In this document: positions 707 to 63,156 of the stretch, in pieces
How the letters are laid out: each line of letters starts with the position of its first letter
How positions within the stretch are numbered: the stretch's first letter is position 1
Origin: Eledone cirrhosa
Lineage: Eukaryota
DNA: 64,000 nucleotides
Direction: 5' to 3'
Assembly: GCA_964016885.1 (NCBI GenBank)
Contig: OZ024755.1
Location: 24,552,001-24,616,000 of the forward strand
Position numbers and translations under genes: made by a program
The notes under the pieces: model-generated
The model's database searches: none
Seen by the model: only the letters and a program-made list of their open reading frames with translations
Told to the model about the DNA's origin: nothing

Positions 707-820
<114 letters not shown>

Positions 821-823
821 TAT

Positions 824-920
<97 letters not shown>

Positions 921-7992: not shown

Positions 7993-8213
7993 AGATATAT
8001 ATATAACTGGTCTCAGTTTGACAATCGCCACCGACGAATGCGAGAAAGTTCTCCAACAAAGTTAACCAGGAATCTTTAAAATTCTTCCCTCCGAAGTTAA
8101 CAAAGAACTTACTAGATCTACCAACTCATAATATTATAATATTATAAAATGAAATAACATTATTTAGCACTACAAGTGAAGTCATTCTTTTCCTTTTTTT
8201 TCAAATATATATA

Positions 8214-8377
8214 TATTTAAGGTGGAAGGTAATATCCGTAGTGGTAGAGCACTCAGTCCATTGGACGAGTTAGGTAGAAGTGGTTACATAACAGTTAGGG
8301 TTAGGGTTAGGGAGCTGATGATCCGCTAAGGTGAAACAATTGTTCTCCGTATGGTGAACCAACTGTTGTGTAACCAC

Positions 8378-8382
<5 letters not shown>
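8214..8382 (-). mobile_element. (TA)n-embedded fold-back hammerhead element with (TTAGGG)3 at the junction
   Basis: 22-bp inverted arms 8275-8296 / 8361-8382; hammerhead 8311-8348; ACTC/GAGT hairpin 8251-8270; TA tracts on both sides. Confidence 0.75.
8311..8348 (+). ncRNA. Type I hammerhead ribozyme (complete core)
   Basis: GGAG-CTGATGA-TCCgctaaGGT-GAA-ACAATTGT-T-CTCC: stem I GGAG/CTCC, palindromic stem III, GUU cleavage triplet. Confidence 0.85.
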
Positions 8383-8420
<38 letters not shown>

Positions 8421-8426
<6 letters not shown>

Positions 8427-8755
8427 AACAAAAGATGGTTAAAAGAGTTCCATGTATTTTATTATGCGCATTTCAAAAACAAATATCATCATGCAATAAT
8501 ATTTGTGTTTTCATCAGATAAAACAGGAAGACATGATATGAAGATTAAAAAACACTTGTGGATAGTGCAGTTTTAAATCAACAATATTATTGCATGATGA
8601 TATTTGTTTTTGAAATACGCATAATAAAATACATGGAACTCTTTTAACCATCTTTTGTTCTTATATATTATATATACTCCAGTCCTACAAACTGTAGAGT
8701 GCTTCTTATCCGATATCTGCATTGCTTTATTGTACTACAATAAAACTCACCTCCT

Positions 8756-25381: not shown

Positions 25382-25714
25382 ATATTAAATAAATGGAAAC
25401 TATATTTATAAAACCATATTTATTTTATTATATATATTTCAAGGGCAACCAAGACAACATTGGTACGCTTTCATCAGATAAAATACAAAGTATGTTTTAT
25501 AAATAGAGACATACCCATGAAAATCATTTATCTGATGAAAGCGTACCAATATTGTCTTGGTTGCCCTTGAAATATATATAATAAAATAAATATGGTTTTA
25601 TAAATATAGTTTAATATCATTGAATATTTACTCCAGTAAACTGTTGAGTGCTCTAAATCAGTTATAAACATTTATGTTTGTCGGACTTCCAACAAATTAA
25701 ATACAACTTCTACT
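25377..25714 (+). mobile_element. (TA)n-embedded fold-back hammerhead element
   Basis: Inverted arms 25377-25482 / 25527-25622; hammerhead in both arms; ACTC/GAGT hairpin 25630-25649. Confidence 0.85.
25527..25587 (+). ncRNA. Type I hammerhead ribozyme (mirror copy on minus strand ~25421-25485)
   Basis: TTTAT-CTGATGA-AAGcgtACCAAtattgtcTTGGTtgccCTT-GAA-ATATATAT-A-ATAAA. Confidence 0.85.
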
Positions 25715-62665: not shown

Positions 62666-62667
<2 letters not shown>

Positions 62668-63082
62668 GTAGGAGGTGAGTTTTATTGTAGTACAACAAAG
62701 CAATGCAGATATCGGATAAGAAGCACTCTACAGTTTGTAGAACTGGAGTATAAATAATAAATAAGATCAAAAGATGGTTAAAAGAGTTCCATGTATTTTA
62801 TTATGCGCATTTCAAAAACAAATATCATCATGCAATAACATTTGCGTTTTCGTCAGATAAAATAGGGAGACATGATATGAAGATTAAAACACACTTGTGA
62901 ATAGTGCAGTTTTAAATCAACATATGTTGATTTAAAACTGCACTATTCACAAGTGTGTTTTAATCTTCATATCATGTCTCCCTATTTTATCTGACGAAAA
63001 CGCAAATGTTATTGCATGATGGTATTTGTTTTTGAAATGCGCATAATAAAATACATGAAACTCTTTTAACCATCTTTTGATC

Positions 63083-63090
<8 letters not shown>
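62666..63090 (-). mobile_element. (TA)n-embedded family A element with a 334-bp palindrome
   Basis: Palindrome 62757-63090 centred on CATATG (2 mismatches seen); tail 62756-62666 matches 8665-8757. Confidence 0.9.
62983..63053 (+). ncRNA. Type I hammerhead ribozyme (mirror copy on minus strand 62794-62864)
   Basis: TATTTTAT-CTGACGA-AAACgCAAAT...ATTTGTTTTT-GAA-ATGCGCAT-A-ATAAAATA; stem I extends through CATG/CATG beyond a bulge. Confidence 0.88.

Positions 63091-63156
<66 letters not shown>

Follow-up and report, generated by a model that had tools for sequence, protein, structure and literature searches.

Penelope-like retroelements (PLEs) encode a reverse transcriptase that is the sister of telomerase. 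Endonuclease-less PLEs residing at chromosome ends were described to gain telomeric repeats on their truncated 5' ends (PMC3846280, PMC6431247), and the endonuclease-bearing PLEs of the Hydra clade are described in section 11 of Craig 2021 (PMC8557442). A head-to-head arrangement of two copies and a tail on only one of the two arms are normal for PLEs (PMC8557442, PMC3846280), and how such head-to-head copies form is treated as an open question (PMC3846280, Discussion; PMC8557442).

The second type of related system are short interstitial telomeric sequences (ITSs). At double-strand breaks, they have been ascribed to telomerase or, as an alternative, to copying of TERRA (PMC2246262; Santagostino 2020, PMC7215372), and bases at the break that are in register with the repeat (seeds) are the mark of telomerase-made short ITSs (Nergadze 2007, PMC2246262). 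Telomeric patches were also reported at induced breaks (PMC5110952). In a search of the literature, mostly of open-access text, telomeric filler at interstitial junctions of endonuclease-bearing PLEs was not found, and the accessible parts of three further papers (PMC4700185, PMC5537684, PMC11371274) added nothing decisive.

Such a filler is present in the window analysed here (the whole stretch of 64 kb), exactly where two arms of a PLE meet. Its 13 bases are best explained as a short interstitial telomeric patch, which host telomerase may have added to a free 3' end during repair of a head-to-head PLE insertion; judged from the letters of the DNA, a probability of about one half is given to this explanation.

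The telomeric run and its boundaries

A sequence-only reading of this DNA had pointed to three perfect TTAGGG units, which were borne out as part of a 19-nt in-register telomeric run (8294-8312). At one mismatch or less, TTAGGGTTAGGG has its sole match in the window at this place, and shuffled sequence gave a mean of 0.16 matches. The run lies 24.56 Mb inside a 45.08-Mb contig of the 3.0-Gb genome and is therefore interstitial. TTAGGG had been taken as the usual telomere repeat, and this holds for the host, as arrays in telomeric orientation were found at 6 of the 20 contig ends examined. The chance of such a foreign 13-mer is 6e-9 per junction.

The run sits between an antisense arm on the left and a sense arm with a hammerhead core on the right (Table 1). 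Both are 5'-truncated copies of the 3' end of the same element, opposed to each other and pointing outward into TA tracts. The left arm stops ~17 nt short of the end of the family tail, and its top strand is the predicted cDNA. Earlier, this arm had been given as 22 bp; a 22-bp stem does exist but is only the portion common to both arms, and the arm itself measures 76 nt. The TTAAGG next to it differs from the telomere repeat at one base and might be a second, decayed patch or a chance match.

Family copies read ...CAGTTAG/TTCACC on the left-arm side and ...TTAC/GAGCTG on the right-arm side (the slash marks the boundary). Measured against family arms, the overlap with the telomeric register is GTTAG (5 nt) on the left and one G on the right, instead of the TT and GG claimed before. 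The left seed is read as GTTAG because rare variants are private to arms (65 in a single arm versus 1 shared between arms), so that the C at 8359 of the right arm is most likely a later mutation; on the sense strand, this overlap is CTAAC in 80 of 93 family arms and CCAAC in none. On the right side, CGAG precedes the hammerhead core in 66/93 arms, and therefore only G8312 is common to the arm and the telomeric register. Both the GG overlap and a GGAG/CTCC pairing proposed as stem I depend on a G>C change at 8348, which is private to the window arm (C in 1 of 124 arms).

Both boundaries were independently confirmed by contigs from other samples, which break exactly at 8298 and 8312 and then run on as family sequence; loose ends were also found at 8216. 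None of these contigs bridges the filler or spans the locus, and their cover is zero at 8302-8309. They collapse repeats, and a joint of 8298 with 8312 in them may come from any head-to-head copy. The arms are ~3% diverged and the filler is perfect, which is compatible with equal age and uninformative on timing. The right arm cannot have arisen by simple snap-back of the left arm as it now stands, because it contains offsets -8 to +38, which are absent from the left. An origin from two independent syntheses that were joined in end repair fits, because each arm has sequence that the other lacks.

The hammerhead motif beside the run had been described as intact with its stem I. Its core is indeed complete, but only 3 bp of the native stem I remain, the pairing put forward in its place needs the private change at 8348, and the fold is no better than that of shuffles. 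A search of Rfam gave no hammerhead match at 8311-8348. By hammerhead numbering, the predicted cut would presumably fall after U8344. Further hammerhead cores lie in the window at 25477/25532, 38356/38373, 18377, 18672, and 44722, the two pairs being TA-flanked arms in head-to-head orientation that belong to other PLE-like families (D and E). Genome-wide, ~2e5 cores are extrapolated from 12 in 327 kb. Right after the element, a second fold-back repeat occupies the same TA tract (8424-8680), and another copy of it is found at 62667-63127.

Table 1. Features of the window around the telomeric run, and other loci with telomeric tracts
Feature or locus	Position	Strand	Description or basis
Left (AT)6 tract	8205-8216	.	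presumed to be target and primer site; a neighbouring repeat (~8011-8216) ends here too
TTAAGG	8217-8222	+	between left TA tract and left arm
Left arm	8223-8298	-	antisense PLE 3' end with tail, family offsets +114 to +39; 74/76 identical
GTTAG	8294-8298	+	element-derived, telomeric register (seed or microhomology, 5 nt); family comparison
(TTAGGG)3 as first reported	8295-8312	+	sequence, shuffles
Non-element filler	8299-8311	+	2x GGTTAG + G, 13 nt; family comparison, other-sample contigs
Right arm	8312-8382	+	5'-truncated sense copy without tail, ends in TA, offsets -8 to +62; 68/71 identical; G8312 shared with telomeric register
Minimal hammerhead motif	8312-8348	+	core 8315-8321 and 8333-8336, palindromic stem III, native stem I shortened
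Right (TA)22 tract	8381-8424	.	presumed second primer site
L321			same family as window, head-to-head; seed GGTTA (5 nt), ~26 nt, variant units
L324			family E, head-to-head hammerhead PLE; 5'-side overlap ~2 nt
L320			family E, single arm after LINE RT fragment, without palindrome; 21-nt tract at 5' truncation point, overlap 0-1 nt
L358			head-to-head junction, hammerhead PLE family; tract begins at GTT, overlap 3 nt
L312			head-to-head junction, hammerhead PLE family; overlap 0-1 nt
L282			head-to-head junction, hammerhead PLE family
L047			head-to-head junction of RT fragment
L318	~750-840		family B head-to-head junction; ~100 nt T-rich filler including 15-nt telomeric run
L116			single-arm-like, partly at junction; tract at least 15 nt
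L313	803-826 (C1:259229220)	-	three GGTTAG added cleanly at the element's own GTTAG, sense strand, just past hammerhead core; short duplication downstream
L327			11 nt, 12 nt off arm, opposite polarity; not counted as event
L254			one TTAGGG unit, locally templatable; not counted as event

The element family and its ordinary junctions

By its motifs and layout, as these have been described, the element is placed as a Hydra-type PLE in the usual head-to-head form in (TA)n. Its unit is 2,519 bp long (spacing in L128), carries a hammerhead in the pLTR and inserts at (TA)n. Longer copies, of which only broken ones were seen, contain a broken reverse transcriptase (RT) ORF followed by a C-terminal GIY-YIG-type domain; the order RT then endonuclease (EN) was found in L009, L012, L025, and L027, with an EN-type C-terminus in L012 and L027. 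The family motifs are SDKT, RWR, CSCRKPEAC, CGLC, and CPH. Atlas matches for the family ORFs include members with HTH_animal, GIY-YIG, and RVT_1, and a Pfam search of three ORF pieces yielded no match. The C-terminal position of the EN and the presence of a hammerhead ruled out membership in Naiad.

Copies are dispersed in the genome. A 108-nt query found 52 genomic matches, nearly all beginning at window base 8312, and there are 4,231 exact occurrences of a 23-nt hammerhead anchor. Because this anchor was present in 9 of 30 unselected partner arms, the family is estimated at ~14,000 arms. The sequence-only reading had proposed to check whether other family copies carry the TTAGGG run, and this was done: the run was found at the junction in 0 of 29 other fetched loci, and the consensus, with telomeric words of 5-6 nt at most, is devoid of the filler. 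The run as a fixed part of the family, on either strand, was thus ruled out.

Ordinary junctions were assessed in 84 loci, which follow the order of the genome, exclude six duplicates and contain 93 arms with the anchor; their majority sequence served as reference. Among the 38 head-to-head junctions in this sample, 13 showed microhomology, 7 were blunt, 10 had 1-4 nt of filler and 8 had filler of at least 5 nt, of which several appeared by eye to be copied from the element; telomeric filler was found in none of the 38. Pairs usually consist of one tailed and one tail-less arm, and family E looks alike. The family has a 5' truncation hotspot just upstream of the hammerhead, with 33/93 arms starting at -20 to -5, and ordinary junctions also include arm ends at +18 to +77. 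The right-arm start of the window (-8) lies in this hotspot, and both window breakpoints are within the normal range.

Frequency of telomeric filler at junctions of Penelope-like elements

Within the family, multi-unit telomeric filler was found in two cases (the window and L321) among ~14,000 arms. Scans anchored in the family returned the window alone, nothing, or L254 with its single unit. Because ~44/93 arms break in the 30 nt that three of these scans cover, ~2,000 junctions were tested by them. Wide scans of the window family and of family D gave nothing new, only L358 again; two of the wide-scan anchors miss both known cases, and those scans only bound the rate.

When a telomeric 11-mer was searched for upstream of any hammerhead core, two scans gave 5 and 3 matches. 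They represent five loci (the window, L321, L324, L320, and L327), all of which are PLE arms. Controls gave 0 for the reversed hexamer and 1 for its backward counterpart, and neighbouring windows gave 0 and 0. Besides the window, hammerhead-anchored scans contained three tracts of at least 14 nt versus ~1.5 expected by a rough estimate.

An independent sample was drawn by telomeric phase only. It comprises, among the matches listed, 59 tracts outside arrays (38 of 56, 8 of 11, and 13 of 23 tracts kept from three sets), with the window excluded and a leaning to C1-C3; long degenerate arrays took up most of the phase-scan matches. By eye, 4/59 of these isolated tracts, among the matches listed, lie exactly at head-to-head PLE junctions (L047, L282, L312, and L358; 95% interval 2-16%), two more are partly at PLE junctions (L318, L116), and one is inside an arm (L313). 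Most isolated telomeric tracts are not at PLEs, and many lie in SINEs, unique DNA, or a fold-back element with telomere-like words. Counts of isolated tracts are inflated by this fold-back family, because its arms carry variable telomere-like repeats.

Automated detection of fold-backs was less uniform. A first detector found 3/46 tracts versus 3/239 and 3/327 controls, a second found 2/46 versus 0.5-1.5% of controls (p 0.03-0.16), and a relaxed version found 4/46 versus 1.1-2.6% of controls (p 0.002-0.03), although only two of these four are PLEs as shown. The threshold was relaxed once, after misses had been seen, and the relaxed detector misses the window junction. Telomeric filler recurs at PLE junctions. 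Its enrichment there is modest and method-dependent. It seems to be an accident outside the PLE cycle, which happens at roughly one junction per few thousand.

Some observations were made beside these counts. Loci of the fold-back family (L419, L423, L426, L135, L085, L359, L360, L434, and L435) have inverted arms with inward telomere-like repeats. In L097, L114, and L122, short telomeric tracts accompany a common SINE-like repeat, lying inside its copies or between them. Degenerate TTAGGG arrays of up to ~300 kb were found mid-contig (C1:208.55-208.59 Mb, C1:217.83-218.13 Mb, C2:127.9 Mb, and C3 at 151 Mb, 184.7 Mb, and 310.9 Mb); possibly, these large arrays are old fusion sites or satellites.

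Origin of the filler

According to the preferred explanation, both target ends would have primed reverse transcription, and the left cDNA would have ended, or would have been trimmed, at GTTAG. This end could pair with the alignment region of the telomerase RNA; telomerase would then add two repeats and release, and end joining would seal the extended end to the other arm via 1 nt. As the other loci suggest, either end of the intermediate, cDNA or target DNA, may be extendable. Telomerase acting on a free end is favoured because a seed in register at the break is what marks short ITSs as made by telomerase (PMC2246262). Among 141 possible arm ends, just 5 offer at least five in-register bases, and the window and L321 both start there. 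Points against it include the modest and method-dependent enrichment, the seeds of only 0-1 nt at L312 and L320, and the variant units of L321, which resemble degenerate arrays. Timing at integration is favoured, with support from the hotspot start of the right arm and from L320, a single arm without palindrome. Later breaks also get patched, because the insert of L313 lies inside an arm; clear junction cases outnumber this one 4 to 1, though arms are far longer than junction zones.

The sequence-only reading had proposed that telomerase or a template jump extended a free cDNA end during integration. The in-register repeats foreign to the family agree with this, but the cDNA as the extended end is unsupported and the timing is favoured only. 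It had also regarded the G-rich strand as the mark of first-strand cDNA. This is not supported by L320 and L116 (single-arm-like, tracts of at least 15 nt), where the G-rich strand extends the upstream (target) side and not the cDNA, and head-to-head joints are ambiguous. The polarity of L327 is opposite to both and may be chance. A test of strand bias at fold-backs is uninformative, because at a symmetric junction the G-rich strand always follows the predicted cDNA of one arm. The kinship between PLE RT and telomerase, to which the same reading appealed, is unnecessary for the explanation. It is a rather speculative thought that the PLE RT itself writes the repeats by a jump at the cDNA end to a telomeric RNA, either TERRA or the template of telomerase, and that this is the source of ~5-10% of the short tracts of the genome.

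Doubtful, but the best of the alternatives, is the capture of a template. The RT of the right arm would jump to TERRA, or a repair polymerase would copy telomeric DNA, and the C-rich extension of the bottom strand would anneal to the left arm via GTTAG/CTAAC. At a head-to-head junction, this gives identical letters. For single arms, a G-rich sense strand upstream is predicted, as seen in L320 and L116, and the variant units of L321, the position of the L318 tract within a longer filler, and the frequent template-copied long fillers of the window family would also be accommodated. TERRA-templated ITSs have been proposed (PMC7215372). However, the tracts are short (11-28 nt), mostly perfect and without any subtelomeric sequence seen, L313 is a clean addition at a GTTAG seed, and the polarity of L327 is opposite, which in a tract of 11 nt may be due to chance.

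Another proposal, which is unlikely, places the event long after integration. Palindrome centres are fragile, and the centre of this one could have broken, with the left arm resected to GTTAG, extended by telomerase and rejoined. The many isolated telomeric tracts away from PLEs and the insert inside an arm of L313 are in line with such late breaks, as is the left-arm end (+39), which lies further in than that of most family arms. However, no extra resection is needed, because ordinary family junctions end in the same range, and L320 is without a palindrome.

Slippage on a local template is very unlikely. The GTTAG end would re-anneal to the tail word GAGTTAGG (8266-8273), which the PLE RT or a repair polymerase would copy reiteratively. 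The tail has GTTAGG 26 nt off and AGTTAG in common with the seed, templated fillers are common in the family, and the single TTAGGG unit of L254 would be accounted for. However, slippage predicts a 5-nt period and needs two independent G gains, because the local template is without the third G. No reiteration was found at the tail word itself, and the same repeat occurs in other families, where such a tail word is only conjectural; the reversed-hexamer control was 0.

Chance or an assembly error, to which the unbridged filler might point, can practically be dismissed given the probability per junction and the recurrence at independent loci, the unbridging contigs being from other samples with collapsed repeats.

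Implications

The scar in the window likely extends a known accident of break repair to the joints of retrotransposons, namely PLE junctions. For a telomeric patch to arise in the seam, free 3' ends must have persisted at the joint long enough to meet telomerase or a telomeric template. High-copy families provide an empty allele for each scar, so that seed lengths and polarities can be tallied within a single genome, with no need for orthologues; the question of telomerase versus TERRA for short ITSs is thereby open to a census. The picture of normal PLE movement is unchanged.

Comparison with known systems

With Athena, Coprina, and Terminons, as far as described in the sources cited, the locus shares repeats at a truncated 5' end and a hammerhead near the 3' end (PMC3846280, PMC6431247, PMC8557442). 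Unlike them, the window family encodes a GIY-YIG-type domain at the C-terminus, inserts at (TA)n, is located mid-contig and seldom gains the repeats. Reverse-complement telomeric repeats after the 3' hammerhead gave 0 matches, and the consensus offers nothing beyond its 5-6-nt telomeric words. Membership in this group was ruled out, given the endonuclease, 0/38 telomeric junctions, and the dispersed copies.

The description of the EN+ PLEs of the Hydra clade is matched in the short unit, RT then EN, the DKT, RWK-like, CxCX5C, CxxC, and CxH motifs, the hammerhead, (TA)n, the inverted truncated copy, and the optional tail. In contrast, the tail of the window family is ~70 nt instead of 30-40 nt, and telomeric junction filler is unmentioned in that section (PMC8557442).

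Like the short ITSs characterised in the papers cited above, the locus has a small number of exact TTAGGG units in an interstitial position, and these begin in the register of the broken 3' end. It differs from the mammalian ones in that the break is the insertion joint of a retrotransposon, that the empty allele is given by the family consensus, and that several PLE families are involved.
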